64,000 nt of DNA from a phage (GCA_036252695.1 GCA_036252695.1_4122.1); one strand, 5' to 3'; counted from the stretch's first letter, positions 1,347 through 14,687 are shown. A program made the numbers and translations. The notes: generated by a model from the sequence alone, not told the origin.

Positions 1347-2359
1347 GACAAATGCGATCACTAGGATTCTCCCCAGGCTAAACCCCGTAATCATATGTAG
1401 TCATAAGTAATCATATATAAACATTTATATTAGCACCGTAGAATCACAGAATGATTATATATGATTCAGTACTGATTAGTATAGACAAGATTGCTCAAGA
1501 TTGCTCAAGAATGCTAGGGAAGGATTCAGTACTGCCCCAAAAGTATTCAGTACTGAAGGTGTCGATATCCCACTAAGTAGGCAGAGGAAGTCTGCCGTAC
1601 TTTGTAGTTTCCAAGCTCCTTTTCCATTTTGCAAATTACATCAAATGTAATCAAAAGTAATCACGCAATGATTAGTACTGAATTATTACTTTCACCTTAA
1701 TTACAATTACCCTTTTACCAGTCGGGGTAAAATTCAATTACCCCTTGAGGCTCCAGCAAAAAGTTGGTTAGTACTCCATCCTAAATCTCGATCCTAAAAA
1801 TTTTGGAGTACCTATGAAATAAAAGTTGGATCTTCGAAAGTTGAAATTTACGTTGGGACGTTTATGATTTGTGGGATATAATGATGTTTGTAGTCGGGTA
1901 GTTCTCAAGAATATCAGTACTGAAAGATGAAAGAAAGTTATTGACTTTATGATTCAGTACTGTATAATGTTCTACATAGCTTCAAGGGGTGATGAGTTGC
2001 TGCGAACAATTCATTTACTCTACCTACTGTCGTGAGACAGTACAGAAAAGATAGTTCCTCCTATTGGTGGTACATCTTTTTGAACCTCATATGAAAATCG
2101 TAATAACAGTACTGATATTAACAGAATGGTATCAGTACTGATTTTAATCTAAAGCATTATGCCACCAGCACAAGCTGGTGGATTCCCTCTAACAGTATTC
2201 AGTACTACATGATAGTCTTCATCCTCCTAGGGTAACATAGTGAGGGCTATGATGGCAGTACTGAATACTCCCTTTCAAAAGATAGATCTATGGTATAGTA
2301 CTGACGGATTTTGGGTGTAGTTACCCTGGGTGGATTTTGGACGTAGATATGTCTAGCCC

Positions 2360-2490
2360 TCCAGAAGTCTGGAAGTAAAGATGGCTATCCATCTAGACGG
2401 CTAAACGGCTAGATTTCTGGATGGCTAGACGTTTGGACGGCTAAACGGCTAGATGGTTACACGTCTGGAAGTATAGACGGCTAAATCAAA
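2360..2490. repeat. iteron-like interleaved direct repeats
   Basis: gacggctaaacggctagat at 2396-2414 and 2436-2454; agacggctaaatc 2475-2487; gtctggaagta 2367 and 2463. Confidence 0.7.
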
Positions 2491-3188
2491 ATTTTATTTT
2501 GTTTTTTCCAATAGTTCCCCTACCGCGTGGGGATAGTTTCCCCGCAGTATCTGGAGTTAGATTTTTCTGAATCTGGAATCATTATCTTATAAACTGGGGG
2601 CAATGTCAACGGCCTGGACGGATATTTTTAAAAATTTTTTTCAGTACTGAATTTTGGGCGTAACTATGCACCCGGTGGGCTTGAGTCTTTCTCGACTTGA
2701 TGGAACTATTATACAGTACTGAAAAAAATAAAGCAATACCCTGGAAGCAAAAAAGTTTTAATTAATTTGCTTGCTATCCTGGGCCGGACTATGGTACTAT
2801 ATTTCAGTACTGAGAAAGTGCGTTTACCTGCTAGGGTGCGGGAGTGTATCCTTTTTTTATATCTTGAATTTTGGGCGTAATTCCGCACCCTCTGGGGTTT
2901 CCGCTTTCTCGCGTCTATGTAGTAATTATACGCTTTTTCAGGATCAAGTCAATACCTAAAAACAAAATAATTGAAAATAATTTAACGCGTTTAAACGGCC
3001 CGTAAAGCCCTGGAATGATTGGAATGGTGCAAATGTATAGCTTAGGTGTATTAATGCGTTAGAATGCGTCTGAGGCCGTTTTATGGGGTGTAGTAGTGAT
3101 TTGGTTGATTCAGTACTGAATGATAGTACTGAATAATAGTTCCCCTATATAGAAAGAAAACTATTTTAAAAGTACATGTAGAAAGTAC

Positions 3189-3247
3189 TTGCAAACTATG
3201 TTTAAAGGCGTATAATGTTTTACATCGAGAGCGGGAACACTTCCCGC
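3189..3247 (+). promoter_or_regulatory. sigma70 promoter + 5' stem-loop cassette
   Basis: -35 TTGCAA 3189-3194, -10 TATAAT 3211-3216, hairpin gcgggaacacttcccgc 3231-3247. Confidence 0.75.
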
Positions 3248-3271
3248 TACACTTTAAAAGAGATTAATACG

Positions 3272-3634
3272 ATGGCGACCCAAATCAATAAAATTATTGC
3301 TAACCTGGTCAACTTCCGTGAAGAGATGAAAGGTCTTCCGGCTGAAACGGTAAAAATTCACATTTCAGCTTATCGGGAACTTATTACAATGTTGCCGCTT
3401 AAGCGTGAACAATACGCCGCTACCGTGATGCTTGATGCGATGATCCATAAGATGATCGCCAGTGATTTAACGATGGTTTATCAGTATATGGGCGAAAATT
3501 TCGCGGTGTATAGTAAACCAGTACCAGGAATGGAAAGTACAGAAGTATTACACGGTTTAAATTTAAAACAAGATGCATGGGATAATATGCCTCGTTTCCT
3601 GGTATGGGCTGACAGTGGCAAAATTTACGAATAA
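3272..3634 (+). CDS. hypothetical early protein
   Basis: ATG at 3272 downstream of promoter/hairpin; ORF track frame of 3215..3634. Confidence 0.65.
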   Translation: MATQINKIIANLVNFREEMKGLPAETVKIHISAYRELITMLPLKREQYAATVMLDAMIHKMIASDLTMVYQYMGENFAVYSKPVPGMESTEVLHGLNLKQDAWDNMPRFLVWADSGKIYE

Positions 3635-3648
3635 GTTTAATAAAGTAC

Positions 3649-3707
3649 TTGCAAACTAAGTTTAAAAGCGTATAATGTTTTACATCAGGTGGGGAATAGT
3701 TCCCCAC
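3649..3707 (+). promoter_or_regulatory. sigma70 promoter + 5' stem-loop cassette
   Basis: -35 TTGCAA 3649-3654, -10 TATAAT 3671-3676, hairpin gtggggaatagttccccac 3689-3707. Confidence 0.75.
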
Positions 3708-3727
3708 TATATAAGAGGATTAAAAAA

Positions 3728-3967
3728 ATGGCTAAATCAAAAATGTTCTTAGGTCACAAAAACAAAACTCATTGGAATGTAAGCCTTTGGATTAATAACG
3801 ATGAGGCATTGTATCGGCTGGCCCAGGACTTTATTGCCGCCAATACTAATCGTAATGATGCGGCCCGTCATATGATGCTATTTTTAGAACAGACTGGGCA
3901 AGATAAAACTCCAGACGGCTTTAAGTATAGCACTACTGCGATCCGTGCGGCGATGGTTGGAATGTAA
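3728..3967 (+). CDS. hypothetical early protein (paralog of 5770..6009)
   Basis: RBS aagagga; shares GHKNKTHWNVSLWINN and TPDGFKYSTTAIRAAMVGM with 5770 gene. Confidence 0.7.
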   Translation: MAKSKMFLGHKNKTHWNVSLWINNDEALYRLAQDFIAANTNRNDAARHMMLFLEQTGQDKTPDGFKYSTTAIRAAMVGM

Positions 3968-4055
3968 TAGAATAGAATTTATTTAAAGTACTATTGCACG
4001 GTGATAGTACTTTATAATAGTGTTTTATTCATACACCAACGATAAGGGCAACAGC

Positions 4056-4322
4056 ATGAATATTAAGTATTTTGCGACGCGTGAACAAGCTCGGATCGCC
4101 GCACGCCAGGACGGGGCAACGTTTAAAGATATGGGCGTACAATCGGAACGTGGTAAACGTTGGGCCATTGTAAAGCGTAGTACCGCCAGATCATTACAGT
4201 ACTGGTTAGCGGCCTTAAAAAGTCCCGATAGTGTATCGCGACGAGTGGTAGAAATAAAGCTCGACCGAAAGGGCAACCGCGTGACCGTGTACCGTACTAA
4301 AAAGATTGCAGTACTTGAATAA
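4056..4322 (+). CDS. hypothetical early protein (paralog of 17098..17493)
   Basis: FATREQARI...RKGNRVTVY shared with 17098 gene; upstream promoter has a 13-nt spacer (weak). Confidence 0.6.
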   Translation: MNIKYFATREQARIAARQDGATFKDMGVQSERGKRWAIVKRSTARSLQYWLAALKSPDSVSRRVVEIKLDRKGNRVTVYRTKKIAVLE

Positions 4323-4329
4323 AAAGTAC

Positions 4330-4388
4330 TTGCAAACTATGTTTAATGGCGTATAATGTTTTACATCGAGAGCGGGAACACTTCCCGC
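4330..4388 (+). promoter_or_regulatory. sigma70 promoter + 5' stem-loop cassette
   Basis: -35 TTGCAA 4330-4335, -10 TATAAT 4352-4357, hairpin gcgggaacacttcccgc. Confidence 0.75.
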
Positions 4389-4409
4389 CTATAACCTGGA
4401 GTAATAAAA

Positions 4410-4640
4410 ATGACTAATATGTATATGACTGAAGTTAAAACTGTAAAAGATACTACCACGAATAAAACTACTTACTTACAGCGGATCTGCGGTGTATGGC
4501 AACGTATCAGCAAATCAAAGTACTATAAATTAACATCATATGCAAACCGTTCGGATTCATTCAGTACTGAAATAAAAGGTAATAAAGTACACCAATACGG
4601 CACTTATTATTATTATAGCCTGGACGCGATTGCAGTATAA
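4410..4640 (+). CDS. hypothetical early protein
   Basis: RBS ctggagt; ORF track. Confidence 0.6.
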   Translation: MTNMYMTEVKTVKDTTTNKTTYLQRICGVWQRISKSKYYKLTSYANRSDSFSTEIKGNKVHQYGTYYYYSLDAIAV

Positions 4641-4887
4641 GCAGTTTACAAATCTTTACAATTGCCGGTATTGACTTATTTTGTCAGTACTGGCATAATG
4701 TATTCATTGGCAGATAAGCCGTAGCCCATAGGGTGCGGGAGTGTATCTATAGAAAAAGTAGTTTAGTATAGTTACAATTGTGCACCCGGTGGGTTAGCTG
4801 TTGTCATGGGGTATATTATGCCAGTACTTGATAATGCTGTCAATACTTTTTTAATATTCAGTACTGAAAACTATTTTTAAAAAGTAC

Positions 4888-4915
4888 TTGCAAACTATGT
4901 TTAAAGGCGTATAAT
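4888..4915 (+). promoter_or_regulatory. sigma70 promoter (upstream of conserved 80-nt leader)
   Basis: -35 TTGCAA 4888-4893, -10 TATAAT 4910-4915. Confidence 0.65.
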
Positions 4916-4921
4916 GTTTTA

Positions 4922-5000
4922 CATCAGGACGGGGAACGAAATAAGTAACTTCCCGTTAAGTAGCCCAGGAGTAAGGCACACGAAAAACTCCCCTGATAAA
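4922..5000 (+). ncRNA. candidate small RNA / structured leader, copy 1
   Basis: ~80 nt between two tandem promoters; near-identical copy at 15897-15976; no ORF. Confidence 0.25.
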
Positions 5001-5005
5001 ATAGT

Positions 5006-5035
5006 TTGACAAATGTTTTTTTAAAAGCGTATAAT
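5006..5035 (+). promoter_or_regulatory. sigma70 promoter
   Basis: -35 TTGACA 5006-5011, -10 TATAAT 5030-5035. Confidence 0.65.
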
Positions 5036-5067
5036 ACTTACATCAACTACTGAATGAGGGTTACAAA

Positions 5068-5679
5068 ATGAAAACTATCACTACTACTACTTATGTTATG
5101 GATTTTTCTGAATTGAACGCAGAACAAAAAACGTCAGCTATCGAACTGGTTCGGGATCGTGAGCGTTCATGCGGTGATTATTTCTTTTCTGAGGGCGTAT
5201 ACGAATACTATAAAGAAACAATTTTGCCGGAGTATGGCATTGATGACGCTGATTTGCAATTCAGTGGTTTTTGGTCGCAAGGTGACGGTGCATCAATTAG
5301 TACTGACCACGTTGACGCAGTGAAGTTTTTACGTAAGGTAAGAGCATTAACTAAGTATCGCTCAATCCGGCACCTGCTGAATGAAGATGATTTGGCGATG
5401 AGTGTAAAGCGTTATCACTACCACTACTCGCATGAGAATACTGTAAGCGGGTACATTGAATCGGCTTACACTGATTTAACCGCAAAACAAGAAACGTTAG
5501 TTAATGAGCTTGAGGAACTACTCACTGACACTATTCGTGAATTGTCCCGCAAGTTGTACCGTGATTTAGAGAATGCATATGAGGATCAATTCACTACTGA
5601 AAACATTACGGCACTGATTGAGGGTAACGAATATCAATTCAATGTTATTGATGGCGTAGTAGAATCAATCGAATATTAA
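5068..5679 (+). CDS. hypothetical acidic protein (203 aa)
   Basis: RBS gaggg; ORF track. Confidence 0.7.
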   Translation: MKTITTTTYVMDFSELNAEQKTSAIELVRDRERSCGDYFFSEGVYEYYKETILPEYGIDDADLQFSGFWSQGDGASISTDHVDAVKFLRKVRALTKYRSIRHLLNEDDLAMSVKRYHYHYSHENTVSGYIESAYTDLTAKQETLVNELEELLTDTIRELSRKLYRDLENAYEDQFTTENITALIEGNEYQFNVIDGVVESIEY

Positions 5680-5691
5680 TTTAAAAAGTAC

Positions 5692-5751
5692 TTGCAAACT
5701 AAGTTTAAAAGCGTATAATACTTTATATCGAGGCGGGGAGTGGTTCCCCGC
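5692..5751 (+). promoter_or_regulatory. sigma70 promoter + 5' stem-loop cassette
   Basis: -35 TTGCAA 5692-5697, -10 TATAAT 5714-5719, hairpin gcggggagtggttccccgc 5733-5751. Confidence 0.75.
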
Positions 5752-5769
5752 TCAAACGAGGATTTAAAA

Positions 5770-6009
5770 ATGGCTAGTACTAAAACTTACAACGGACACA
5801 AAAACAAAACTCATTGGAATGTAAGCCTTTGGATTAATAACGGTGAGTCATTGTATCGGCTTGCTCAAAGTTGCATCGCACAAAGTAGAACTAAAGATAT
5901 TGCAGCGGAATGTATGTACCGCAGATTAAAAGCCAACGGTACTACTACAACGCCGGACGGCTTTAAGTATAGCACTACTGCGATCCGTGCTGCAATGGTT
6001 GGAATGTAA
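5770..6009 (+). CDS. hypothetical early protein (paralog of 3728..3967)
   Basis: RBS gagga; identical C-terminal 19 aa to 3728 gene. Confidence 0.7.
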   Translation: MASTKTYNGHKNKTHWNVSLWINNGESLYRLAQSCIAQSRTKDIAAECMYRRLKANGTTTTPDGFKYSTTAIRAAMVGM

Positions 6010-6067
6010 TATTCAGTACTGTAACAATGGCGGGGAATGGTTCCCGCCTTTATTGAGGGTTTATCTA

Positions 6068-6328
6068 ATGAGTAAAGTAATTAACTATACAGTACTAAGC
6101 AAGTCATTATCTATCAGTCATTGCACCGATGGTTATTGGCTATTTGATGAAACGCGTGGCATGAATTTAGCTATGCGTGCAAAAACTGCTGAGGCGGCGT
6201 ATATTCAAGCACTGGAATACTACCAGGAACGTTTAAAGGAAGTAGAAGAAGATTATAAAAGCCTCAAAGCGAAAGTAGATCATTTCGTCGGTCAATTCAT
6301 CGAGGAAGACGACGACAAACAATATTGA
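6068..6328 (+). CDS. hypothetical early protein
   Basis: RBS tgagggt before ATG 6068; hairpin ggcggggaatggttcccgcc 6029-6048 upstream. Confidence 0.55.
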   Translation: MSKVINYTVLSKSLSISHCTDGYWLFDETRGMNLAMRAKTAEAAYIQALEYYQERLKEVEEDYKSLKAKVDHFVGQFIEEDDDKQY

Positions 6329-6336
6329 AAAAGTAC

Positions 6337-6396
6337 TTGCAATTAGTTTCAAGTACTGTATAATGGTTTACATCAAAGGGGGAAATGGTTCTCCCT
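6337..6396 (+). promoter_or_regulatory. sigma70 promoter + 5' stem-loop cassette
   Basis: -35 TTGCAA 6337-6342, -10 TATAAT 6359-6364, hairpin agggggaaatggttctccct. Confidence 0.75.
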
Positions 6397-6414
6397 GGTA
6401 ATGAGGAAAATAAA

Positions 6415-6636
6415 ATGGCTAATATCACTACTCTTTCCCAACTGGAAGCACTGGTTAAATCTATGCGGGAACATGCCGACAAAATCGGCGTACAAGATCC
6501 AGCCGTTTGCTTCTGCGACGAATTGAATGATGATACACTGGTAATAGCAGAAGTCCAGGACGTTTCTAACTATTCCTCGCGTTACACTGGCGGCGTAGCA
6601 AATAAAGGTGACTTCTGTTTATACCTTACAAAATAA
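6415..6636 (+). CDS. hypothetical early protein
   Basis: RBS gagga; ORF track frame. Confidence 0.65.
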   Translation: MANITTLSQLEALVKSMREHADKIGVQDPAVCFCDELNDDTLVIAEVQDVSNYSSRYTGGVANKGDFCLYLTK

Positions 6637-6640
6637 CAAC

Positions 6641-6671
6641 GCGGGGAGATAATAACTCCCCGTTACTTTTT
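6641..6671 (+). terminator. intrinsic terminator
   Basis: cggggag...ctccccg stem followed by ttacttttt. Confidence 0.55.
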
Positions 6672-6804
6672 CAGTACTGAATCATTTAATAGACGGATCT
6701 ATGCACCCGGTGGGTTAGTGACTGTTTCGTCTTGATGTAGTAATTATGCCAGTACTGGATGCACTTGTCAACAATTATTTTTCAAATACTTTTTATTAAA
6801 ATAC

Positions 6805-6859
6805 TTGCAATTAGTTTTTAAACGCGTATAATGTTTTGCATAGGGGGAGCGGTTCCCCT
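6805..6859 (+). promoter_or_regulatory. sigma70 promoter + 5' stem-loop cassette
   Basis: -35 TTGCAA 6805-6810, -10 TATAAT 6827-6832, hairpin gggggagcggttcccc. Confidence 0.75.
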
Positions 6860-6879
6860 GGTAACTAAGGAATAATAAA

Positions 6880-7137
6880 ATGCTTGAACAAATCAAATCA
6901 ACGTCTGCGAATGTAACGGGAACGGTAGCACACTTTACTAGTGATGAATCGCGGGGCGTTCCCTATTGTGCTGTACATGTAAACACTGAGGGTAACTACT
7001 GGTTTACGGTTTACGGATCATATTCATTTGGACGGCCAGGGCATCAAAAAATTCTGGATAAAGTACAACCAACGGGTAAAAATATCACTGCCGAAATGTT
7101 TTATAAAAATCATAAAGTACTTGATAATAGTTTTTAG
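6880..7137 (+). CDS. hypothetical early protein
   Basis: RBS aaggaa; ORF track. Confidence 0.65.
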   Translation: MLEQIKSTSANVTGTVAHFTSDESRGVPYCAVHVNTEGNYWFTVYGSYSFGRPGHQKILDKVQPTGKNITAEMFYKNHKVLDNSF

Positions 7138-7180
7138 TACTGTATAATATTTTACATCGCAAGGGGGAGCGGTTCCCCCT
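7121..7180 (+). promoter_or_regulatory. sigma70 promoter + 5' stem-loop cassette
   Basis: -35 TTGATA 7121-7126, -10 TATAAT 7143-7148, hairpin agggggagcggttccccct. Confidence 0.7.
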
Positions 7181-7199
7181 GGTAACTAAGGATAATCAA

Positions 7200-7499
7200 A
7201 TGAAAATTGCAATCATCGCCCTGGCTTTATCTGTTTCCTCTTTCGCTGTTAATGCGTCATTAGATGTAAGTAGTGAAAAATTCATTCAGTGCACTGTTGC
7301 AATGACCGATGAAAGAACTGGCGAGATTGTATTAAAGGATTTAGAGATCCAGCCAGAAGCATTTAAAAACGGGCCGTTCCATGAAGAAGACGAAAAAGGT
7401 AGCACGACAATTTATTACGATGCAAGTACTAAACGCGGTTCGGTCACTGTTATGGATACTGAGAAAGTAACTCATACTGGCGTTATTAATTGCCGTTGA
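7200..7499 (+). CDS. putative secreted/periplasmic protein with N-terminal signal peptide
   Basis: N-term MKIAIIALALSVSSFAVNA is signal-peptide-like (hydrophobic core, AxA-type cleavage site). Confidence 0.65.
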   Translation: MKIAIIALALSVSSFAVNASLDVSSEKFIQCTVAMTDERTGEIVLKDLEIQPEAFKNGPFHEEDEKGSTTIYYDASTKRGSVTVMDTEKVTHTGVINCR

Positions 7500-7520
7500 T
7501 AGATACTACGGGGTAACATC

Positions 7521-7751
7521 ATGACTAAGCGAATTGTTTTACTTAACGAAAGCAGTACTACACAACTACTTAACGCCGTGCATTATGATATTGAAACGAG
7601 CGTTAATCTTATCAGTACTGTAGTACTATTGGACACTGGAAAGGTCGCCAATGATAAAGCGATTGCAGGTATATTAACGGATCTTGAGCCTGGTAGCAGT
7701 GCACCAATAACGTTAAATGGTAAAGTGTTTAATATTTTACTCACTGATTAA
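7521..7751 (+). CDS. hypothetical early protein
   Basis: RBS gggg; ORF track. Confidence 0.55.
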   Translation: MTKRIVLLNESSTTQLLNAVHYDIETSVNLISTVVLLDTGKVANDKAIAGILTDLEPGSSAPITLNGKVFNILLTD

Positions 7752-7757
7752 GTACAT

Positions 7758-7786
7758 AGCCCACCTGGTGGGCTTTTTTGTTTTTG
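7758..7786 (+). terminator. intrinsic terminator
   Basis: agcccacctggtgggc hairpin + ttttttgtttttg. Confidence 0.8.
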
Positions 7787-7833
7787 TAGTATCGTAGTAC
7801 TGAGATACTTTAAAAATAGTTTTAAAAAAGTAG

Positions 7834-7861
7834 TTGACATTACCACAAAAAGGCGTAGAAT
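7834..7861 (+). promoter_or_regulatory. sigma70 promoter with ~120-nt leader
   Basis: -35 TTGACA 7834-7839, -10 TAGAAT 7856-7861; leader resembles the 4922 leader family. Confidence 0.65.
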
Positions 7862-7984
7862 GTATTACATCAAGACGGGGAGCACTAAGTAGACCGCCAG
7901 TAAGTCGAACGAAAAACTGGACACGTCGAGAAAACTTTGATACACTAATAAACGTAAACTAAACTTTAATTGAGGATTTATAAA

Positions 7985-8467
7985 ATGGCTAATGTAAAAT
8001 CATTCATCAAAGCACTGGTAGCAAATGAAACTAACGTAGCGGCAGAGATCCTGGCTGAACTGGATAACGATACCATGAAAGCGGTACGCAATAATTTTAA
8101 CATCGCTTACAGTACTGCGAAAGAACTACAAGCAAATAAAGCGGCAGAAATTGAAGCGGCAAAGGCGGCCCGTGAAGCAGAACTACAAGCAACAATTGAA
8201 AGTATCCAGGCGGCAGTAGTTGGATTGGATCTGGAAGTAGTTACAGAGATGGCACAAAAAGCCCTGGCGGTTAAGTATGGGGAAGACAAGCCAGAAGTAA
8301 AAGCCAAAAAATGGATTCAGGAACGCGTAGCGGTAGTACTGGACAACGGGGAAGAATATCTGATTCCGGTGCGTGGTAACTGCATTGCGGTAGTACTGGA
8401 TGCGATTAACTCCAGTGGTATGACTCGCGAGGAATGGATCGAAGCTCATCGCAAAGTGGAAGCATAA
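7985..8467 (+). CDS. hypothetical Ala/Glu-rich protein (160 aa, coiled-coil-like)
   Basis: RBS gagga; KAAEIEAAKAAREAELQA segment. Confidence 0.7.
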   Translation: MANVKSFIKALVANETNVAAEILAELDNDTMKAVRNNFNIAYSTAKELQANKAAEIEAAKAAREAELQATIESIQAAVVGLDLEVVTEMAQKALAVKYGEDKPEVKAKKWIQERVAVVLDNGEEYLIPVRGNCIAVVLDAINSSGMTREEWIEAHRKVEA

Positions 8468-8488
8468 CAATTAAAGTACTGAATCACT

Positions 8489-8516
8489 AGCCCACTGCAT
8501 AAGTGGGCTTTTTTGT
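8489..8516 (+). terminator. intrinsic terminator
   Basis: gcccact...agtgggc hairpin + tttttt. Confidence 0.8.
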
Positions 8517-8668
8517 GTTTATCGTTTACCAGGCCACCAGCACCGCCTAGAATCGATTCTAACGCATTAAACTGATTATCTGATGCATCGCCCTAGCTGG
8601 TGGCGTTAAGGTCGTTAGAATGCGATTGAGAGCGTTTAAAGTATTTTGCAAAAAGTAATAAAAAGTAC

Positions 8669-8727
8669 TTGCACGATTAAGAGATTAGCGTATAATGTTT
8701 TACATCGAGAGGGGGAAACGGTTCTCC
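8669..8727 (+). promoter_or_regulatory. sigma70 promoter + 5' stem-loop cassette
   Basis: -35 TTGCAC 8669-8674, -10 TATAAT 8691-8696, GC hairpin. Confidence 0.7.
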
Positions 8728-8751
8728 TTCCAAATCAAAGGAATTAAAACA

Positions 8752-8979
8752 ATGGCTATCGTAATCACTCGCGTAACTGGTACTACTGGCAATTCTTCTA
8801 CTGTTGCTGTAATTACTAATAAGAAAGGTGCGGAACTACATTTTGCAATGTATAACTGGTCAGTTGATGAGTTTGGTCAGTACGCTAGTGTAGAATACAT
8901 TGAAACCTATCAAGTGCCGTCGATTAGTTTAACTGATTTGGGCGTTGAGCGTATCCTTTGCCTGGATGAATTAAATTAA
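8752..8979 (+). CDS. hypothetical early protein
   Basis: RBS aaagga; ORF track frame. Confidence 0.65.
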   Translation: MAIVITRVTGTTGNSSTVAVITNKKGAELHFAMYNWSVDEFGQYASVEYIETYQVPSISLTDLGVERILCLDELN

Positions 8980-8987
8980 AAAAGTAC

Positions 8988-9047
8988 TTGCAAAGTAAAT
9001 CGAATAAAGTATAATACATTACATCAAGGGGAGAAATGGTTCTCCCT
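8988..9047 (+). promoter_or_regulatory. sigma70 promoter + 5' stem-loop cassette
   Basis: -35 TTGCAA 8988-8993, -10 TATAAT 9010-9015, hairpin ggggagaaatggttctccc. Confidence 0.75.
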
Positions 9048-9065
9048 GATAATGAGGAAACTAAT

Positions 9066-9209
9066 ATGAAAACTTGTCAATGTGGTAAAAAATCTATTAC
9101 TGGTTTAAAGCGGGGCGTTGCTCTTTGTCAGTACCATTATAATTTACAAGTATGGGGTAAAGAATGGGCCGACCAGGTGGAAGCAGCAAAGAAAGCAAAA
9201 AGTAAGTAA
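9066..9209 (+). CDS. small Cys-rich protein (47 aa; not in ORF track)
   Basis: RBS gagga; MKTCQCGKK...LCQYHYN; own promoter cassette. Confidence 0.5.
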   Translation: MKTCQCGKKSITGLKRGVALCQYHYNLQVWGKEWADQVEAAKKAKSK

Positions 9210-9288
9210 AAATATTATCACAGTACTATTGACATAGTTTGATAGTACTGACATAATAGATTTTATCAAGACAACTGAGGAAAATAAA
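9208..9288 (+). repeat. duplicated ~80-bp promoter module (copies at 9502-9590 and 12580-12662)
   Basis: aaatattatcacagtactattgacatagtttgatagtactg(a/g)cataata in all three copies. Confidence 0.85.
9229..9257 (+). promoter_or_regulatory. sigma70 promoter
   Basis: -35 TTGACA 9229-9234, 17-nt spacer, -10 CATAAT 9252-9257. Confidence 0.7.
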
Positions 9289-9501
9289 ATGGCTATCATC
9301 ACTAAAATCAAAGTAAGTAAAACCCTGGTTAAACTTGAACAAGTGAAAGCAGGTTATAAAGTATCTTGGTGCGGTATGTATCGGATGTTCGCAGATATTG
9401 ATGAAGCAATCAATTATTACAGCGACACGGTTAAAAACTTTGTTCGTGCTGATGTGGTTATGGCAGTGGCAACGCACAAAGCAGCGAAAGAAAGTAAGTA
9501 A
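9289..9501 (+). CDS. hypothetical early protein (MAII family; paralog of 12663..12842)
   Basis: RBS gagga; ORF track. Confidence 0.65.
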   Translation: MAIITKIKVSKTLVKLEQVKAGYKVSWCGMYRMFADIDEAINYYSDTVKNFVRADVVMAVATHKAAKESK

Positions 9502-9520
9502 AAATATTATCACAGTACTA

Positions 9521-9549
9521 TTGACATAGTTTGATAGTACTGGCATAAT
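9521..9549 (+). promoter_or_regulatory. sigma70 promoter
   Basis: -35 TTGACA 9521-9526, -10 CATAAT 9544-9549. Confidence 0.7.
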
Positions 9550-9590
9550 AGATTTTATCAAGACAACATATTAATTTAAGGAATACAAAA

Positions 9591-9914
9591 ATGGCTAAAA
9601 CTATCATTAACACCGTTTCCCTGGCTGCAATCCGTGCAATCAATGTTGACGGTAAACGTTGGACTGATTCATATGGCAATACTTATCATTCTTGTCATGT
9701 AAGCGTCGAACTGGATAACGGTTTGAATGATCTGGCGGTTGAATCATTTACTTATGGCTATGAAGATGCATATCAACAAACGGCGTTAGATCTATTAAAG
9801 GAATCAGTAGACGGGCTTAATACTGATGAAACCTCCCTTACTCGTTTGTGCAATGATCTTAATATCCCGTTGCATTGTACTGTACAGAATGTTAAACGCA
9901 AAAAAGATCTTTAA
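9591..9914 (+). CDS. hypothetical early protein (paralog of 16675..16998)
   Basis: Shares RWTDSxGNTYHSC...ETFTYGY...KRKKD with 16675 gene. Confidence 0.7.
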   Translation: MAKTIINTVSLAAIRAINVDGKRWTDSYGNTYHSCHVSVELDNGLNDLAVESFTYGYEDAYQQTALDLLKESVDGLNTDETSLTRLCNDLNIPLHCTVQNVKRKKDL

Positions 9915-9994
9915 TTAGCTTTACTTTATGCAGATACTTTGATATAGTGTCTGCATAGGGGAAAGAAATTAAATTAACTTAAGAGGAACGTATA

Positions 9995-10264
9995 ATGAAA
10001 AATATCAGTACTTTAATCGATGCAGGTACTCATGTTCGTCGGTCTATGGTTGCAACCAGTACTACAAAACAAGTAGCGAGCGGTTATCTTGTATTTGTGC
10101 ACGATGGTAAACTCCTGGAACGTTCAATCAATTTTGATGTTAAAAACAATTGCCGTTTTATTATCTTTAAGCGTGAACAATATAAAATTGATTTACCAGC
10201 GAAGCCCATAAGCGGGGCGTACAACGTGCAATCATTGTTTGAACGTCAACCATACACCTATTAA
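9995..10264 (+). CDS. hypothetical early protein
   Basis: RBS aagagga; ORF track. Confidence 0.6.
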   Translation: MKNISTLIDAGTHVRRSMVATSTTKQVASGYLVFVHDGKLLERSINFDVKNNCRFIIFKREQYKIDLPAKPISGAYNVQSLFERQPYTY

Positions 10265-10315
10265 TCAAAACATCGTTAGCGGTCGATTTAGGCCGCTTGT
10301 ATTGGGGATTATACC

Positions 10316-10486
10316 ATGAACGTTAATCAAGTACTGAATGAGATCGAAAGCATCATTAAACCAATGAAACGCATTGATGCTATGTTAACACCGGAAGAAT
10401 GCCGCCTTTATGAGCGTTACAGTGTGGAACAAGCCCAGGAAATGGCCCGTATCCGTCCGGTTGCCAGTACTGATAAGGCGGCGTAA
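10316..10486 (+). CDS. small hypothetical protein (56 aa; not in ORF track)
   Basis: RBS tggggatt; stop overlaps next start (TAATATG). Confidence 0.45.
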   Translation: MNVNQVLNEIESIIKPMKRIDAMLTPEECRLYERYSVEQAQEMARIRPVASTDKAA

Positions 10487-10487
10487 T

Positions 10488-10697
10488 ATGCTTACTGTAC
10501 AGGATAAGATCGACATCTTAAAGGTTAATATGTATGTGATTGATGCCGTACCTGGTAAAGTATTTGCATACGATGATTCTAATCGCAGTCCGTTTTATTG
10601 CAGTCATGTAGTTGGATACGTGCCGTTGGCGTATGTTATAGAAAGAGTGGTTGATGCAGCATACAAACATTTTTTAGAAAATAATACTTGCAATTAG
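10488..10697 (+). CDS. hypothetical early protein
   Basis: In-frame ATG at 10488 within ORF 10410..10697; coupled to upstream ORF. Confidence 0.5.
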   Translation: MLTVQDKIDILKVNMYVIDAVPGKVFAYDDSNRSPFYCSHVVGYVPLAYVIERVVDAAYKHFLENNTCN

Positions 10698-10746
10698 TTT
10701 TCAGTACTGTATAATGATTTACATCGAGAGCGGGAATAGTTCCCGC
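10688..10746 (+). promoter_or_regulatory. sigma70 promoter + 5' stem-loop cassette
   Basis: -35 TTGCAA 10688-10693, -10 TATAAT 10710-10715, hairpin gcgggaatagttcccgc. Confidence 0.75.
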
Positions 10747-10767
10747 CTCACTTTTAAGGAATATGAA

Positions 10768-10914
10768 ATGAAAGCATCAAAAAAGAGTAATACTAAGAAA
10801 GCATGTTCACCTTTCGCTGGGGTATTCCCTTTACGTTTTGTTGATGAAGTAGTTTCCTACCCGCCGGGCCTTACTCCTGAGATGGTAGAAAGTTTGCGTA
10901 AATCTAAAAAATAG
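10768..10914 (+). CDS. small hypothetical protein
   Basis: RBS aagga; ATG 10768. Confidence 0.55.
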   Translation: MKASKKSNTKKACSPFAGVFPLRFVDEVVSYPPGLTPEMVESLRKSKK

Positions 10915-10917
10915 TAC

Positions 10918-10974
10918 TTGCAATTAGTTTTTAGTACTGTATAATAGTTTACATGAAGGGGAAAACGTTCCCCT
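10918..10974 (+). promoter_or_regulatory. sigma70 promoter + 5' stem-loop cassette
   Basis: -35 TTGCAA 10918-10923, -10 TATAAT 10940-10945, hairpin aggggaaaacgttcccct. Confidence 0.75.
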
Positions 10975-10996
10975 TACACCTAACGAGGAAAGTATA

Positions 10997-11248
10997 ATGG
11001 AAACAATTTTAATCAAAGACACTGCTACTACTGTAACTTATGATAATGATTGCATTATCCCAGGGACTGAGTACGGCGAACGTGTACCCGTTCAAGTAGA
11101 GATTGATACCACATACATCGACAAGGCTGACCAGTGTATCACTATTGTAATTGGTGAATATCGTTTTCTACCAGAAGAGATCCAAAAATGGCAGAATATG
11201 ATTGACCGTGCGAAATTAGTCGCACAAAGTTTAAAATACAAAGTTTAA
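10997..11248 (+). CDS. hypothetical early protein
   Basis: RBS gaggaa; ORF track. Confidence 0.65.
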   Translation: METILIKDTATTVTYDNDCIIPGTEYGERVPVQVEIDTTYIDKADQCITIVIGEYRFLPEEIQKWQNMIDRAKLVAQSLKYKV

Positions 11249-11256
11249 AATAATAC

Positions 11257-11316
11257 TTGCAATTAGTTTTTAAACGCGTATAATGTTTTACATGAAGGGG
11301 AGAAATGATTCTCCCC
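11257..11316 (+). promoter_or_regulatory. sigma70 promoter + 5' stem-loop cassette
   Basis: -35 TTGCAA 11257-11262, -10 TATAAT 11279-11284, hairpin ggggagaaatgattctcccc. Confidence 0.75.
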
Positions 11317-11334
11317 AATAACAGGAGAAACAAA

Positions 11335-11487
11335 ATGAAACAATACAACGCTCGGTTTGATGTTACTATCGGTAACGGCAAAGGTCAATTCTCTTTCAGT
11401 ACTCGCAAAAGTTATACAGAAAACTTCCTGCGTAATTGTGCACTGACCGCCGCACAAATTAAACATTACTTTCAGGCTAAAAAATGA
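11335..11487 (+). CDS. small hypothetical protein
   Basis: RBS caggag; ATG 11335. Confidence 0.55.
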   Translation: MKQYNARFDVTIGNGKGQFSFSTRKSYTENFLRNCALTAAQIKHYFQAKK

Positions 11488-11573
11488 AATCATTAGCTTA
11501 TTACAGTTCGGCCCTGGTCGGTGCATTGATCGCGGCGTTGTTAGTAACCTATCTATTCTTTATGGTGATTTAA
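11484..11573 (+). CDS. 29-aa hydrophobic micropeptide (putative single transmembrane helix)
   Basis: ATGA overlap with upstream stop; MKSLAYYSSALVGALIAALLVTYLFFMVI. Confidence 0.35.
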   Translation: MKSLAYYSSALVGALIAALLVTYLFFMVI

Positions 11574-11717
11574 ATGAATCCAACAGGTTTAAACTATAAA
11601 AGTTGTTCGGCGTTTACGAAAGCAAATAAAGCGAATGCACGTAAAGCGAAAGTAAAGGAGTACATCAAGCAAGGCATGACGCGAAAGGCGGCGATTCTAA
11701 AAGCTAAAAATAAATGA
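11574..11717 (+). CDS. 47-aa basic micropeptide
   Basis: Starts immediately after stop of preceding micropeptide; Lys-rich. Confidence 0.3.
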   Translation: MNPTGLNYKSCSAFTKANKANARKAKVKEYIKQGMTRKAAILKAKNK

Positions 11718-11910
11718 AAAAAGTGGTTGACTCCGGTCAGCCATTTTGCTATTATATATTCATTGAGAGATAGCTCACTAGCCCACAGGGTGCATAAGTG
11801 TATCTATTATATAAGTATTGAGTACTGAAAACTATTTTAAAAAAGTACTTGCAAACTATCTCAATAAGCGTATAATGTTTTACATCGAAAGGGGAAACGG
11901 TTTCCCCTGG
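11717..11910 (+). repeat. dispersed ~190-bp intergenic module (hairpin/promoter + AGCCCAC box + promoter cassette)
   Basis: Near-identical to 19012-19205; contains TTGACT 11727-11732 / TATTAT 11750-11755 inside a hairpin, and agcccacagggtgc. Confidence 0.85.
11849..11908 (+). promoter_or_regulatory. sigma70 promoter + 5' stem-loop cassette
   Basis: -35 TTGCAA 11849-11854, -10 TATAAT 11871-11876, hairpin aggggaaacggtttcccct. Confidence 0.75.
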
Positions 11911-11927
11911 TAATAAGGAAACAAATC

Positions 11928-12269
11928 ATGACTATCTCAATTGCTCAATCTAACTTTGAAAACGAAATCATCGCCCAGGCACTGCGTTTAAATGATGGTC
12001 GGGCCGAAATTAATTACGGTTTCAATTCAGGCGGTTGTGAAAAATATCAGTACTTTGTAACGGCTGATGGCGGTGTCCTGGGTATCAATACAGTTATTGT
12101 AAACATCCAAAAAATTAATTTCAATGATCCAGACGATAGCCAGTTTTACATCACTGGCGTAGACGTGAACTATGAGGATGACTCACTAACTGATGATCAC
12201 ACTGGCGAGCGGTTAGAAAGTGCATACGGTGAAGATGATTATCAGTCCGGTCCAGAAGATTTCGAATAA
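11928..12269 (+). CDS. hypothetical acidic protein
   Basis: RBS aaggaa; ORF track. Confidence 0.65.
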   Translation: MTISIAQSNFENEIIAQALRLNDGRAEINYGFNSGGCEKYQYFVTADGGVLGINTVIVNIQKINFNDPDDSQFYITGVDVNYEDDSLTDDHTGERLESAYGEDDYQSGPEDFE

Positions 12270-12284
12270 TATAAAAAAAATAGT

Positions 12285-12344
12285 TTGACAATAGATTATA
12301 GTACTGTATAATAGTTTACATCAAGGGGAGAAAAACTTCTCCCC
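12285..12344 (+). promoter_or_regulatory. sigma70 promoter + 5' stem-loop cassette
   Basis: -35 TTGACA 12285-12290, -10 TATAAT 12307-12312, hairpin ggggagaaaaacttctcccc. Confidence 0.75.
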
Positions 12345-12366
12345 ACTAACAGAGAGAGAAAACAAA

Positions 12367-12579
12367 ATGGCTAATATCCGGTCGAAATTAAAAAATGCAA
12401 AACAAGTTTTATTTTCAGATCATGAATACTTTAATAAAGATATTACAGGAGTTACAAGTATCAAGGAAGTAAAAGAAAAAACCGGCGTTTTGTGTGATGT
12501 GCGATTAGTTGGGACATTTGGGAATAACGTGCTATATCGCTGCGGTGATTACAATTTTACACTGACTATCATTAACTAA
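12367..12579 (+). CDS. hypothetical early protein
   Basis: RBS agagaga; ORF track. Confidence 0.6.
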   Translation: MANIRSKLKNAKQVLFSDHEYFNKDITGVTSIKEVKEKTGVLCDVRLVGTFGNNVLYRCGDYNFTLTIIN

Positions 12580-12598
12580 AAATATTATCACAGTACTA

Positions 12599-12627
12599 TT
12601 GACATAGTTTGATAGTACTGACATAAT
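12599..12627 (+). promoter_or_regulatory. sigma70 promoter
   Basis: -35 TTGACA 12599-12604, -10 CATAAT 12622-12627 (third copy of the 9208 module). Confidence 0.7.
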
Positions 12628-12662
12628 AACTTTTATCAACTACACTACTAAGGAATTAAAAA

Positions 12663-12842
12663 ATGGCTATCATCGCAAAAACTGAAATCGTTGGTCTGGA
12701 TTCTATCATCATGACGTTTGAAGATCAAAAAGGTATGTATGTAGTTTCCTATGGTGATTATGTTCGGGAGTATGAAACGGTAGACGAAGCCTTTGAAAGT
12801 TATATTCGCCAGGTGAATAAAGCATACGACGACTACCGCTAA
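12663..12842 (+). CDS. small protein (59 aa; MAII family; not in ORF track)
   Basis: RBS aaggaa; MAIIAKTEIV... resembles 9289 gene N-terminus. Confidence 0.5.
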   Translation: MAIIAKTEIVGLDSIIMTFEDQKGMYVVSYGDYVREYETVDEAFESYIRQVNKAYDDYR

Positions 12843-12869
12843 AATATATTACCAGTACTATTAAATCTA

Positions 12870-12897
12870 TTGACAACGTTTGATAGTACTGTATAAT
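12870..12897 (+). promoter_or_regulatory. sigma70 promoter
   Basis: -35 TTGACA 12870-12875, -10 TATAAT 12892-12897. Confidence 0.7.
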
Positions 12898-12941
12898 AAG
12901 TTTTATAAACAGTAGTTAACTTAACCTAAGAGAGAAATAAA

Positions 12942-13085
12942 ATGATCGCACTGGATTCATTCATCGACGCAGTACTGGCAAAAACTGGCGAGGATCTGAC
13001 CGCAGAACAATACGCGATGATCGAGCAATGTCAGCAAAACGGTAAATCGGTGAAAGATACTGTTAAGATTATCCGCAAGATGTAA
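12942..13085 (+). CDS. small hypothetical protein (47 aa; not in ORF track)
   Basis: RBS aagagaga; terminator-like hairpin follows. Confidence 0.45.
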   Translation: MIALDSFIDAVLAKTGEDLTAEQYAMIEQCQQNGKSVKDTVKIIRKM

Positions 13086-13091
13086 GATTAT

Positions 13092-13125
13092 AGCCCACTG
13101 GTTAACGCTGGTGGGCTTTAATCAT
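13092..13125 (+). terminator. possible intrinsic terminator
   Basis: agcccactgg...ctggtgggct hairpin; weak T tract. Confidence 0.4.
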
Positions 13126-13190
13126 TTACCCTATACAATGCCAGTACTAAACCGTTTATCTCGTTAGAATGCGTTACAGGACGTTTAACA

Positions 13191-13388
13191 ATGATTAGCA
13201 TGAAATCAGTACAAAAACAAATAGAAACATTATCAAAAATTAAACGTAAACAATACTCCTTAGAATATACAATCAATGGTAACTATCATCTAATGAAAGA
13301 AAATAATTTTATAGTCATTGATGAATCATTGCAAATTATTAGTATAGTACTGAAAGCATTAATCAATGACAGAAAAAAATTAAAATAA
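13191..13388 (+). CDS. hypothetical AT-rich small protein
   Basis: ORF track; weak RBS; composition differs from neighbours. Confidence 0.35.
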   Translation: MISMKSVQKQIETLSKIKRKQYSLEYTINGNYHLMKENNFIVIDESLQIISIVLKALINDRKKLK

Positions 13389-13392
13389 TCTA

Positions 13393-13421
13393 TTGACAAT
13401 ATCCTCCAGTACTGGCATAAT
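13393..13421 (+). promoter_or_regulatory. sigma70 promoter with ~300-nt leader
   Basis: -35 TTGACA 13393-13398, -10 CATAAT 13416-13421. Confidence 0.6.
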
Positions 13422-13481
13422 ACTTACATCAAGACGAGAACGTCACTAACCCATAGGGTGCACAAATGTAACTATATAATA

Positions 13482-13558
13482 TCGATCAATAAATGATCAA
13501 AAAAGTACTGGATCAATTTAGCATAAGGAGTATAATTCTGATCAATTCTTGATCAAAG
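13482..13558. repeat. cluster of five GATCAA motifs (Dam-site cluster)
   Basis: GATCAA at 13484, 13495, 13511, 13540, 13551. Confidence 0.7.
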
Positions 13559-13717
13559 GCAATAAACGCAGTTGAATTTATATAGACAATACGAAGGCGT
13601 TACTATCCGTGGTAATGCTGGTGGATATGTAGTATCATGTGGTTTGAATAAGATTAGCACTAGTAGTATTATTGTAGCATTACAGTACTATAGTATTTTT
13701 ATAATGAGGTTAAAATA

Positions 13718-13975
13718 ATGGCTGTAGGATTTGCGAAGGACGGGGCCGAACAAGACGAGATTAACGCAGTGATTCAGGCCGCCGTAAACCACGCTAGAAA
13801 GCAAATTAACGCACAAATAGAATCACTGATACATTGCCTCGACTGTGGCGATAAAATCCCTGAGAATCGCCGCCAGGCTGTTAAGGGATGTAAGTACTGC
13901 ATAACTTGCCAGGAGGATCATGATAGTACTTTTAAAAGAGATCCGCGTAATTGTTGGCATAGATCTATGAGATAA
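13718..13975 (+). CDS. DksA/TraR-family C4 zinc-finger protein
   Basis: CLDCGDKIPENRRQAVKGCKYCITCQ fits the C-x2-C-x17-C-x2-C TraR/DksA zinc-finger pattern. Confidence 0.6.
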   Translation: MAVGFAKDGAEQDEINAVIQAAVNHARKQINAQIESLIHCLDCGDKIPENRRQAVKGCKYCITCQEDHDSTFKRDPRNCWHRSMR

Positions 13976-13981
13976 AAAGTA

Positions 13982-14009
13982 TTGACAGTACTGAAAGATA
14001 GTGTATAAT
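13982..14009 (+). promoter_or_regulatory. sigma70 promoter
   Basis: -35 TTGACA 13982-13987, -10 TATAAT 14004-14009. Confidence 0.7.
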
Positions 14010-14038
14010 ATTTTATATCTTAACTGAGGATAGTAATC

Positions 14039-14395: not shown

Positions 14396-14398
14396 TAC

Positions 14399-14466: not shown

Positions 14467-14473
14467 AATGAAA

Positions 14474-14662: not shown

Positions 14663-14687
14663 TATTAACTCAATAGGAAAACGATAA

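Follow-up and report, generated by a model that had tools for sequence, protein, structure and literature searches.

The DNA analyzed here is a 64,000-nt stretch of a phage genome (GCA_036252695.1), hereafter called the window, and the element in question is a segment of approximately 75 nt that lies between two tandem promoters at positions 4888-5035. The region around the element shared ~95% identity with Asteriusvirus jumbo coliphages (e.g., PBECO4, G17, and Sharanji), and 121Q matched it as well; in related records, this copy of the element (copy A) lay within an annotated direct terminal repeat, ~3.4-3.8 kb from the left end. Approximately 2-22 kb of the window consisted of a dense array of early-gene cassettes with dozens of near-identical sigma70 promoters of the form AAAAAGTACTTGCAA-N17-TATAATGTTTTACATC, and each cassette ran from the promoter through a short G+C hairpin at approximately the transcript 5′ end, a ribosome-binding site, and a small open reading frame (ORF) to the next promoter. 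Promoters and start sites throughout were predicted from the sequence or taken from annotation, and RNA ends and RNA stability were likewise predicted.

A preliminary description of this DNA had reported two near-identical copies of a non-coding segment between tandem promoters, and this was borne out by a 139-nt direct repeat (4874-5012 and 15849-15987, 89% identity) containing copies A and B, each with a consensus sigma70 promoter upstream (promoter P1) and a 12/12 promoter downstream (promoter P2). The consensus sequence given there for the segment was correct, and the related leader placed after a promoter at 7834 was real, with 7886-7904 matching TAAGTAGNCCNNNAGTAAG; this leader is called copy C below. 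The pattern TAAGTAGNCCNNNAGTAAG occurred three times in the window, against 0.08 expected (0/100 shuffles). When both strands of the window were searched, with filters off, using a covariance model of the 39-nt core (R1), there were exactly three matches, at 15930-15968 (58.7 bits, E=2e-11), 4955-4993 (55.4 bits), and 7884-7922 (53.8 bits), and the fourth-best score was 8 bits. The segment was non-coding, as had been proposed: the sole ORF through copy A (4914-5009) began inside the -10 box, and a 1-nt difference in hairpin length in phage A7_1 gave an in-frame stop, so that a coding role was rejected.

The same core was present in phage T7, where nt 536-599 lie between the annotated Escherichia coli promoters A1 (+1 at 498) and A2 (+1 at 626) and read CCGGGGUCAACCGG-A-UAAGUAG-ACAG-CCUG-AUAAGUCGCACGAAAAA-CAGG-UA-UUGAC; the T7 core (nt 549-588) showed ~85% identity with that of copy C. 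The T7 segment matched 491 Autographiviridae records, including T3, Yersinia, Klebsiella, and Salmonella phages, Kayfunavirus, and Drulisvirus, and nothing functional was annotated beneath it among the matches listed. Each of these records had a single match, and in T7 the core lay behind A1 only (a single R1 match), the A2 and A3 transcripts being without the element. By BLAST, the 83-nt element showed ~90% identity in unrelated phages, among them Stephanstirmvirinae (muut, outra, and EmilieFrey) and Vequintavirinae (A73, W70, A7_1, and A5-4), and the layout of promoter P1, element, and promoter P2 was found in the three records inspected (muut, A73, and A7_1). Besides these few rV5-like and phi92-like phages, homologues occurred in Pantoea phage LIMEzero and in RaK2-like jumbo phages (related to Munch, 7t3, fENko-Kae01, and K64-1), where the element lay 2.7-4.4 kb from the left end, a position at which two records carried an annotated terminal repeat. 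Searching metagenomes and IMG/VR by pattern brought further, divergent copies, of which one (L015) had the appearance of a T7-type early region; the first IMG/VR pattern was over-strict and gave nothing, and the divergent copies came from relaxed patterns. The CMSTMSU record (L005), which was flagged UNVERIFIED and had many indels, was left out of the alignments. The second inter-promoter spacer of T7 (A2 to A3, 626-720) and of T3 (~480-570) held a degenerate relative of the element (UUAAGCGCACCACGGCACAUAAGGUGAAACAAAACGG-UUGACA) without conserved P3 or S1 pairing (helices described below), which looks like a decayed tandem duplicate.

Thermodynamic folding of copies A and B gave a three-way junction of helices P1 (AUCAGG/CCUGAU), P2 (ACGGGGA/UUCCCGU in copy A, with UCCCCGU in relatives), and P3 (GGAG/CUCC), and the differences between the two copies were confined to positions unpaired in this fold. 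Copy C kept UAAGUAG and the P3 loop, had CCAG/CUGG for GGAG/CUCC in P3 and AUCAAG/UUUGAU for AUCAGG/CCUGAU in the outer helix, and missed the distal half of hairpin P2; its differences in P3 and in the outer helix are compensatory changes. The internal complementarity noted in the preliminary description was real, and all helices covaried, but two hairpins were insufficient to describe it, the conserved core being an H-type pseudoknot. The base following UAAGUAG covaried with the base following UAAG in the P3 loop, and the G and C on either side were invariant. The parts of the pseudoknot were helix S1 (G-N-C with G-N'-C within the P3 loop), helix P3 (4-5 bp), loop L2 (UAA), and an A-rich loop L3 (NNAYGAAMAA). 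In T7, the S1 strands GAC and GUC lie at nt 557-559 and 570-572.

Covariation was assessed in alignments of 29-45 distinct sequences each. In the set representing all lineages (n=29), S1 and P3 were paired in 100% of the sequences; the middle pair of S1 was AU in 15, UA in 10, CG in 3, and GC in 1, which are all four Watson-Crick types, and P3 had both-sided changes in 3/4 pairs. The covariation score was 0.548, compared with 0.139+-0.025 for shuffles (0/500 reached 0.548) and <=0.139 for slid partners. G.U pairs were confined to the + strand. Thirty-six unique cores passed the pairing filters, with six P3 stems (CCUG/CAGG, CCAG/CUGG, GGAG/CUCC, GGUG/CACC, CUUG/CAAG, and CCUG/CGGG). In each of copies A, B, and C, (N)RAGUAG immediately preceded a G-N-C complementary to a G-N'-C in the P3 loop (GCC/GGC, GUC/GAC, and GAC/GUC, respectively), and a 4-5-bp P3 surrounded a 16-17-nt loop (A)UAA-GN'C-NNAYGAAMAA (R1 53.8-58.7 bits). 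The three copies were in the sense orientation and <=~55 nt downstream of a predicted early sigma70 start; the same placement was seen with the annotated promoters of T7, EcoDS1, and LIMEzero and with promoter sequences read at the loci of the other lineages.

In the T7-type set (n=41), hairpin P2, S1, and a 5-bp P3 each covaried, and there was a further helix, P4, in which the P2 loop pairs with a 5-6-nt tail starting exactly 2 nt after P3. Seven combinations of loop and tail were found (GUCAA/UUGAC, GUCAC/GUGAC, GUCAUC/GAUGAC, GUCAGA/UCUGAC, GUCGGU/ACCGAC, GUCAAG/CUUGAC, and UCAAC/GUUGA), with both-sided changes in 6/6 pairs and with the five core pairs 98-100% paired. The tail belonged to the A2 -35 hexamer in T7, T3, and Drulisvirus. 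In EcoDS1 (Kayfunavirus), the tail was separate from and upstream of the annotated second promoter and was not a real -35 hexamer; because it still covaried with the P2 loop, the constraint on P4 was attributed to RNA pairing. The tail after P3 paired with the transcript 5′ end, and not with the P2 loop, in the jumbo, RaK2-like, and LIMEzero types (AUCAGG/CCUGAU, GCGGCG/UGUCGC, UCAACGAAG/UUUCGUUGG, and AUCGAAG/UUUCGGU).

Folding and covariation of the copies upheld a structured RNA on the + strand, and the alignments demonstrated that the ~75-nt segment encodes a folded RNA domain on that strand, composed of a closing helix at approximately the transcript 5′ end, hairpin P2, the invariant single-stranded UAAGUAG, and the H-type pseudoknot. 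The family core is UAAGUAG with an H-type pseudoknot having an A-rich third loop, always within a closed domain. Rfam release 15 (4227 families) gave no match at the gathering score in the window; matches at E<=10 on 4850-5080 (copy A) were at chance level only, and at E<=1 there was no match on the T7, T3, Kpp-9, EcoDS1, and L011 loci, so that a known RNA family was rejected as the identity of the element. A description of this RNA family was not found in the open-access literature, and older subscription papers could hold one; the T7 core sequence itself occurred in three papers with titles and abstracts on other topics. The element and the T7 A1-A2 spacer belong to one pseudoknot RNA family, widespread but without annotation, which we judged to be new although of a general kind already known. 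The matches showed that the family is located in the predicted first host-polymerase transcripts of many virulent enterobacterial phages. The coordinates of the three copies are collected in Table 1.

Table 1. Predicted features of copies A, B, and C of the element in the window
Feature	Position (nt)	Strand	Description
Copy A promoter P1	4888-4915	+	TTGCAA (4888-4893)-N16-TATAAT (4910-4915), 10/12; A/T-rich region upstream
Copy A element	4923-4997	+	75 nt; minimum free energy (MFE) fold z=-2.4; covariation
Copy A closing helix P1	4923-4928 / 4992-4997	+	AUCAGG / CCUGAU
Copy A hairpin P2	4929-4935 / 4950-4956	+	
Copy A junction J	4957-4962	+	UAAGUA
Copy A pseudoknot helix S1	4963-4965 / 4975-4977	+	GCC / GGC
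Copy A stem P3	4968-4971 / 4988-4991	+	GGAG / CUCC
Copy A loop L3	4978-4987	+	A-rich
Copy A promoter P2	5006-5035	+	TTGACA-N18-TATAAT, 12/12; leader after P2 without hairpin
Gene after copy A	5068-5679	+	203 aa, phrog_5162
Copy B promoter P1	15863-15890	+	TTGCAT (15863-15868)-N16-TATAAT (15885-15890)
Copy B element	15898-15972	+	75 nt; MFE fold z=-2.6
Copy B closing helix P1	15898-15903 / 15967-15972	+	
Copy B UAAGUAG	15932-15938	+	
Copy B S1	15938-15940 / 15950-15952	+	GUC / GAC
Copy B P3	15943-15946 / 15963-15966	+	GGAG / CUCC
Copy B promoter P2	15981-16008	+	TTGACA-N16-TATAAT, 12/12
Gene after copy B	16041-16316	+	91 aa, phrog_14947; also follows the element in phi92-like phage muut
Copy C promoter	7834-7861	+	TTGACA-N16-TAGAAT, 11/12
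Copy C element	7869-7941	+	Rearranged; 5′ untranslated region (UTR) of the next gene
Copy C outer helix	7869-7874 / 7936-7941	+	AUCAAG / UUUGAU
Copy C short helix	7875-7877 / 7924-7926	+	ACG / CGU
Copy C UAAGUAG	7886-7892	+	
Copy C S1	7892-7894 / 7904-7906	+	GAC / GUC
Copy C P3	7897-7900 / 7917-7920	+	CCAG / CUGG
Gene after copy C	7985-8467	+	160 aa, phrog_27871; homologues follow the element in L048, L125 (RaK2-like), and the unplaced metagenome contig L011

The proteins encoded downstream of the element belonged to unrelated families, which excluded a gene-specific role, and a common gene family was found only at copy C, L048, L125, and L011. The window gene at 8752-8979 had an ordinary promoter, whereas its A73 homologue (93% identical) and its EJP2 homologue (shared N-terminus) each lay behind promoter P1, the element, and promoter P2. 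In 121Q and the window, the element and promoter P2 were in common and different genes followed promoter P2. These placements showed that the unit of promoter and element is separable from downstream genes and that the domain is modular and mobile among cassettes and phage families. The distance from the element to the next -35 hexamer was 2, 14, 24, 29, 34, or 42 nt by lineage, and in L069 and LIMEzero no -35-like hexamer was present within 60 nt after the element. There was no terminator-like site between the element and promoter P2 and no intrinsic terminator after the element; the element did not overlap a ribosome-binding site, and downstream promoters bypassed it. The proposal that promoter P2 drives the downstream gene is plausible, given its 12/12 match and the occurrence of the same gene elsewhere with one promoter and without the element. 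As for the suggestion that promoter P1 produces a small RNA or a regulatory leader, an RNA-level element on the + strand was supported, but a discrete ~75-nt RNA and a read-through leader were not separable from the sequence; the closing helix, which joins the 5′ end of the domain to its 3′ boundary, was compatible with a processed stable RNA and was not proof of one.

Two further observations concerned copy C. A weak promoter-like site with an extended -10 (7918-7946; TGGACA-N17-TGaTACACT) began at the 3′ strand of its P3 and may be a decayed counterpart of the promoter P2 found after the element elsewhere. The gene after copy C and those of L048, L125, and L011 were homologous (phrog_27871 / phrog_20181), and this family had a shared C-terminal motif, RVAV..G..Y.MPTSGN...VLKDAM, and a T7-gene-10-like AACUUUAA leader.

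We tentatively favor the reading that the element is an ORF-less early cassette whose product would be the RNA itself, binding a host factor. The early region would follow a fixed grammar of promoter, 5′ structure, ribosome-binding site with ORF, and next promoter, and since the cassette of promoter P1 has no ORF, its product was read as the RNA itself. Synthesis by sigma70 RNA polymerase would occur during the first minute after infection, promoter P2 would be the resident promoter of the next cassette, and the near-identical flanking promoters would serve as recombination arms, as in the PeSL cassettes of T4-type phages (PMC2839356; see below), allowing the unit to move by homologous recombination. 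The RNA would then bind a conserved host component, the candidates being the transcription, RNA-decay, or translation machinery, and would serve as a decoy or an aptamer, whether released by processing or still part of the leader; regulation of a particular downstream gene would not be part of its role. Invariant loops combined with freely covarying stems are the pattern of a specific binding pocket, and, taken with the independence from downstream gene identity, they fit a pocket for a conserved host factor better than a cis requirement of all early mRNAs. The low copy number (one per T7-like record, and three in the window, which has dozens of early promoters) also fitted an RNA product better than a cis need of every early mRNA. 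The covarying helices, the G.U pairs on the + strand only, the spread over several phage lineages, and the near absence outside phages were counted in favor of this reading as well.

Several points weigh against an RNA product that binds a host factor. Neither an intrinsic terminator nor another defined 3′ end followed the element, so that a discrete small RNA was not demonstrated. In copy C and in LIMEzero-type phages, an mRNA leader simply begins with the element. Neither complementarity nor mimicry survived testing, the likeness to 16S rRNA being at chance level. The near-universal adjacent -35 hexamer could mean a cis link to that promoter instead of cassette grammar, and the T7-type -35 hexamer was itself part of helix P4. 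Part of the cross-family sharing is due to recent horizontal transfer, and much of it may be, inflating the apparent conservation; the muut and A73 copies were ~90% identical to the jumbo-phage copies. Held with slightly less confidence still is the bolder proposal of an RNA-only host-takeover factor that went unnoticed in T7, in which a singly or doubly pseudoknotted domain of ~40-63 nt might bind and redirect a conserved host machine such as RNA polymerase, the degradosome, the ribosome, or a defense protein. T7-like, RaK2-like jumbo, rV5-like, and phi92-like phages would transcribe this RNA from their strongest early promoters seconds after infection begins.

During T7 genome entry, early transcription by the host polymerase must be processive, and this need in T7-like phages would be served by a cis element of the kind formed by putL and putR of phage HK022, in which the nascent pseudoknot would bind its own RNA polymerase and make it resistant to pauses and terminators. 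We consider this explanation unlikely, although it is the strongest competitor of the host-factor reading. The element has the position and size class of putL, a ~70-nt tertiary-structured RNA few nt from an early sigma70 start (PMC9378689), is independent of downstream gene identity, and heads transcription units that begin after terminators. However, it would modify only A1-initiated polymerases in T7 and, of the dozens of early promoters that the window has, the polymerases from just 3, and the window units with the element stopped at strong terminators 0.6-1.6 kb downstream, the next genes having their own promoters. T7 genetics also points elsewhere: suppressors that remove the need for Gp2 lie in boxA and promoter A3, and the summary of that work names no further sites (PMC3709561). 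Moreover, R1 revealed no sequence relationship to HK022 (nt 24000-38500), and an H-type pseudoknot was found here, compared with two stem-loops and a triplex in put.

Somewhat less likely again is a structural 5′ domain, a stabilizer or insulator that would protect early mRNA against 5′-end-dependent RNase E attack or scanning. In the jumbo, RaK2-like, and LIMEzero types the closing helix started from ~+1 to +3, every ordinary cassette of the array had a simple 5′ hairpin at the same place, and the copy C element was the 5′ UTR of an ORF. This explanation leaves the invariant single-stranded UAAGUAG, UAA, and GAA unaccounted for, because simple hairpins suffice in other cassettes. In T7, furthermore, the element lay away from the 5′ end and was absent from the A2 and A3 transcripts, and RNase III cleavage at site R0.3 separates it from the 0.3 mRNA.

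It appears improbable that the element is a riboswitch, with an aptamer for a small molecule, or a small self-cleaving ribozyme of a new type. The compact, singly or doubly pseudoknotted fold of 40-63 nt, in which the stems covary while the junction and loop nucleotides are invariant, is typical of both, but in decades of in vitro work with T7 A1 transcripts self-cleavage has, to our knowledge, not been reported. Small ribozymes are often phage-associated (PMC4604425), and pistol was considered and rejected on topology, the strand order being ( [ ) { < } > ] here and ( [ ) { ] < > } in pistol (PMC4604425). Neither class was supported by an Rfam match at the thresholds given above, and a riboswitch was further opposed by the lack of an expression platform: no terminator followed the element, it did not overlap a ribosome-binding site, and the downstream promoter bypassed it. 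Least probable is a feature of the DNA only, namely an upstream promoter (UP) element that serves the downstream promoter, or a relic that cassette recombination left behind and that has no function: the A-rich L3 lay at ~-47 to -42 of T7 A2, where a UP proximal subsite would lie, a -35 hexamer followed 2-42 nt after the element in most lineages, and the 5′ half of the jumbo-type element resembled the generic cassette hairpin, but this reading was contradicted by the covarying helices and the variable spacing to the next -35 (with no such hexamer near the L069 and LIMEzero elements), since pairing in P2, S1, P3, and P4 was kept by compensatory changes with G.U on one strand only, neither of which a duplex-DNA site needs, the Kayfunavirus P4 tail covaried although it was not a real -35, and a relic would not account for conservation over dozens of distinct sequences in several phage families.

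Other identities were examined and set aside. A terminated small-RNA gene was not supported, since its own promoter was present but no terminator was found after the element. A boxA/nut-type site was rejected since no boxA occurred in the early region of the window; T7-like and LIMEzero-type phages had a boxA, separate from and downstream of the element. Similarity to 16S rRNA (13/15 between 16S nt 871-885 and the junction-to-P3 stretch, and 14-15/20 between 16S nt 54-73 and the loop, with ~0.04 such matches expected per query) was judged to be chance rather than mimicry, the identity vanishing wherever P3 covaried. Homology to HK022 put was rejected since R1 was without a match in HK022 nt 24000-38500 at E<=1 and the fold differed. 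BLAST against 5,426 complete E. coli genomes gave no match to the element, which excluded a host copy; the same search, in which complementarity of <~11 nt is invisible, yielded none of the targets that the preliminary description had envisaged. Two pattern scans of bacterial and archaeal genomes (185,579 species) gave one match, on a phage-like, T3-like 2.7-kb contig, so that a bacterial or prophage counterpart was likewise rejected. A ToxI-like RNA was not supported, the copies being single and dispersed and the host searches giving only that contig.

Several further features were noted in the early array. Chi sites (GCTGGTGG) numbered 12 in the window, against 0.38 expected (0/100 shuffles), at positions spanning 2162-21061 (+ and - strands) plus 62162; 11/12 lay within the 2-21 kb early, terminal-repeat-side region, 9 of these 11 on the + strand, and there were two inverted pairs (2162/2174 and 8534/8596). 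One site (15814-15821) lay 42 nt upstream of copy B promoter P1, and in the RaK2-like contig L125 a Chi site also adjoined the element. This clustering may protect the incoming DNA end against RecBCD. Four conserved mini-units on the minus strand (~4850->4690, 6778->6620, 2960->2800, and 2745->2585), one of them just upstream of copy A, consisted of TTGACA-N17-(G/C)ATAAT, then ACUACAUCAAG..CGAGAAAG..AACCCACCGGGUGCAUA.., and then UUCAGUACUGAAAAA; they had no sizeable ORF, lay in terminator-rich gaps, and may be short divergent non-coding transcripts. A repeated + strand module (15724-15808, 19013-19097, 20939-21023, and 11707-11844) comprised a 12-bp terminator hairpin (AAAGGGATTGACTCCGGTCAATCCCTTT) holding a TTGACT-N17-TGcTATTAT promoter-like site, followed by GCCCACCGGGTGC, and sat before 'CAGTACTGAAAACTATTTTTAAAAAGTACTTGCAA' promoters, copy B promoter P1 among them.

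Many ordinary cassettes (e.g., 8659-8745 and 19135-19221) had transcripts beginning with ACAUCGAGAGGGGG, the same initial transcribed sequence as T7 A1 (AUCGAGAGGG; T7 498-507), and Drulisvirus phage Kpp-9 and the jumbo phage had a AAAGTACTTGC-type -35 region in common; early promoter cassettes thus appear, from these likenesses, to be shared between phage families. A 77-nt repeat (9199-9275 and 9491-9567, 99% identical, with further copies at 12569-12645 and 20291-20367) contained a distinct promoter type (TTGACATAGTTTGATAGTACTG(A/G)CATAAT) without a 5′ hairpin. Several diverged direct-repeat families at 38372-42181 lay inside coding sequence and indicate probable tandem paralogous genes.

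Although T7 is among the best-studied viruses, no function for its ~130-nt A1-A2 spacer was found in the open-access literature. A covariation-backed pseudoknot in this spacer, recurring in unrelated phage families as a mobile cassette, suggests that something functional happens at the RNA level as infection begins. Should its target be the host polymerase, RNases, or a defense system, the RNA would be a new RNA-only takeover or anti-host device beside the few known ones, put, pseudo-ToxI, and RNA anti-CRISPRs. Annotators gain a new family to model for Rfam, and for engineers, who use the T7 A1 region widely, the A2 -35 hexamer is, in part, also one strand of an RNA fold.

Among known RNAs, the preQ1-I riboswitch is a small H-type pseudoknot aptamer with an A-rich third loop; it resembles the element in its ~35-nt core, its two short helices, and an A-rich loop placed for the minor groove of the first helix, whereas helix lengths and loop sequences differ, and the element has no Rfam match or expression platform and occurs in a phage early leader. 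ToxI and phage pseudo-ToxI are small pseudoknotted RNAs, and early phage expression of such an RNA neutralizes a host protein. The element would likewise be a small pseudoknotted RNA expressed early by phage, but it has no tandem repeats, adjacent toxin gene, or Rfam match, and no counterpart in E. coli or the 185,579 genomes, one phage-like contig aside. The pistol ribozyme shares a 5′ hairpin loop that pairs with a downstream strand, a size of ~50-60 nt, and phage association (PMC4604425); here, in contrast, the hairpin loop pairs with the 3′-most tail, the internal helices form their own pseudoknot, and there is no P2/P3/GU arrangement and no Rfam match.

HK022 putL and putR are similar in being ~70-nt highly structured RNAs just after an early sigma70 promoter, in needing no dedicated phage protein, and in being independent of the genes that follow (PMC9378689). 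They differ in fold: put is V-shaped, with two stem-loops and a triplex in the minor groove, whereas the element has an H-type pseudoknot, a hairpin, and a closing or second-pseudoknot helix, and there is no sequence homology; moreover, a minority of early promoters carry the element, and T7 genetics points to boxA. In the T4-type cassettes of early promoters and stem-loops (PeSL), arrays of near-identical early promoters, each next to a stem-loop, are reported to flank small variable ORFs and to mediate their shuffling as modules (PMC2839356, PMC4122927). The early array of the window behaves in the same way, with an early promoter and stem-loop flanking variable ORFs and with modules exchanged between genomes, and the unit with the element is swapped among genes and phage families. 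The likeness is one of behavior and not of family membership, the phage group and sequences being other, and whereas the PeSL stem-loop, in those accounts, is a simple hairpin or terminator, its place is taken here by a conserved pseudoknot in an ORF-less cassette.

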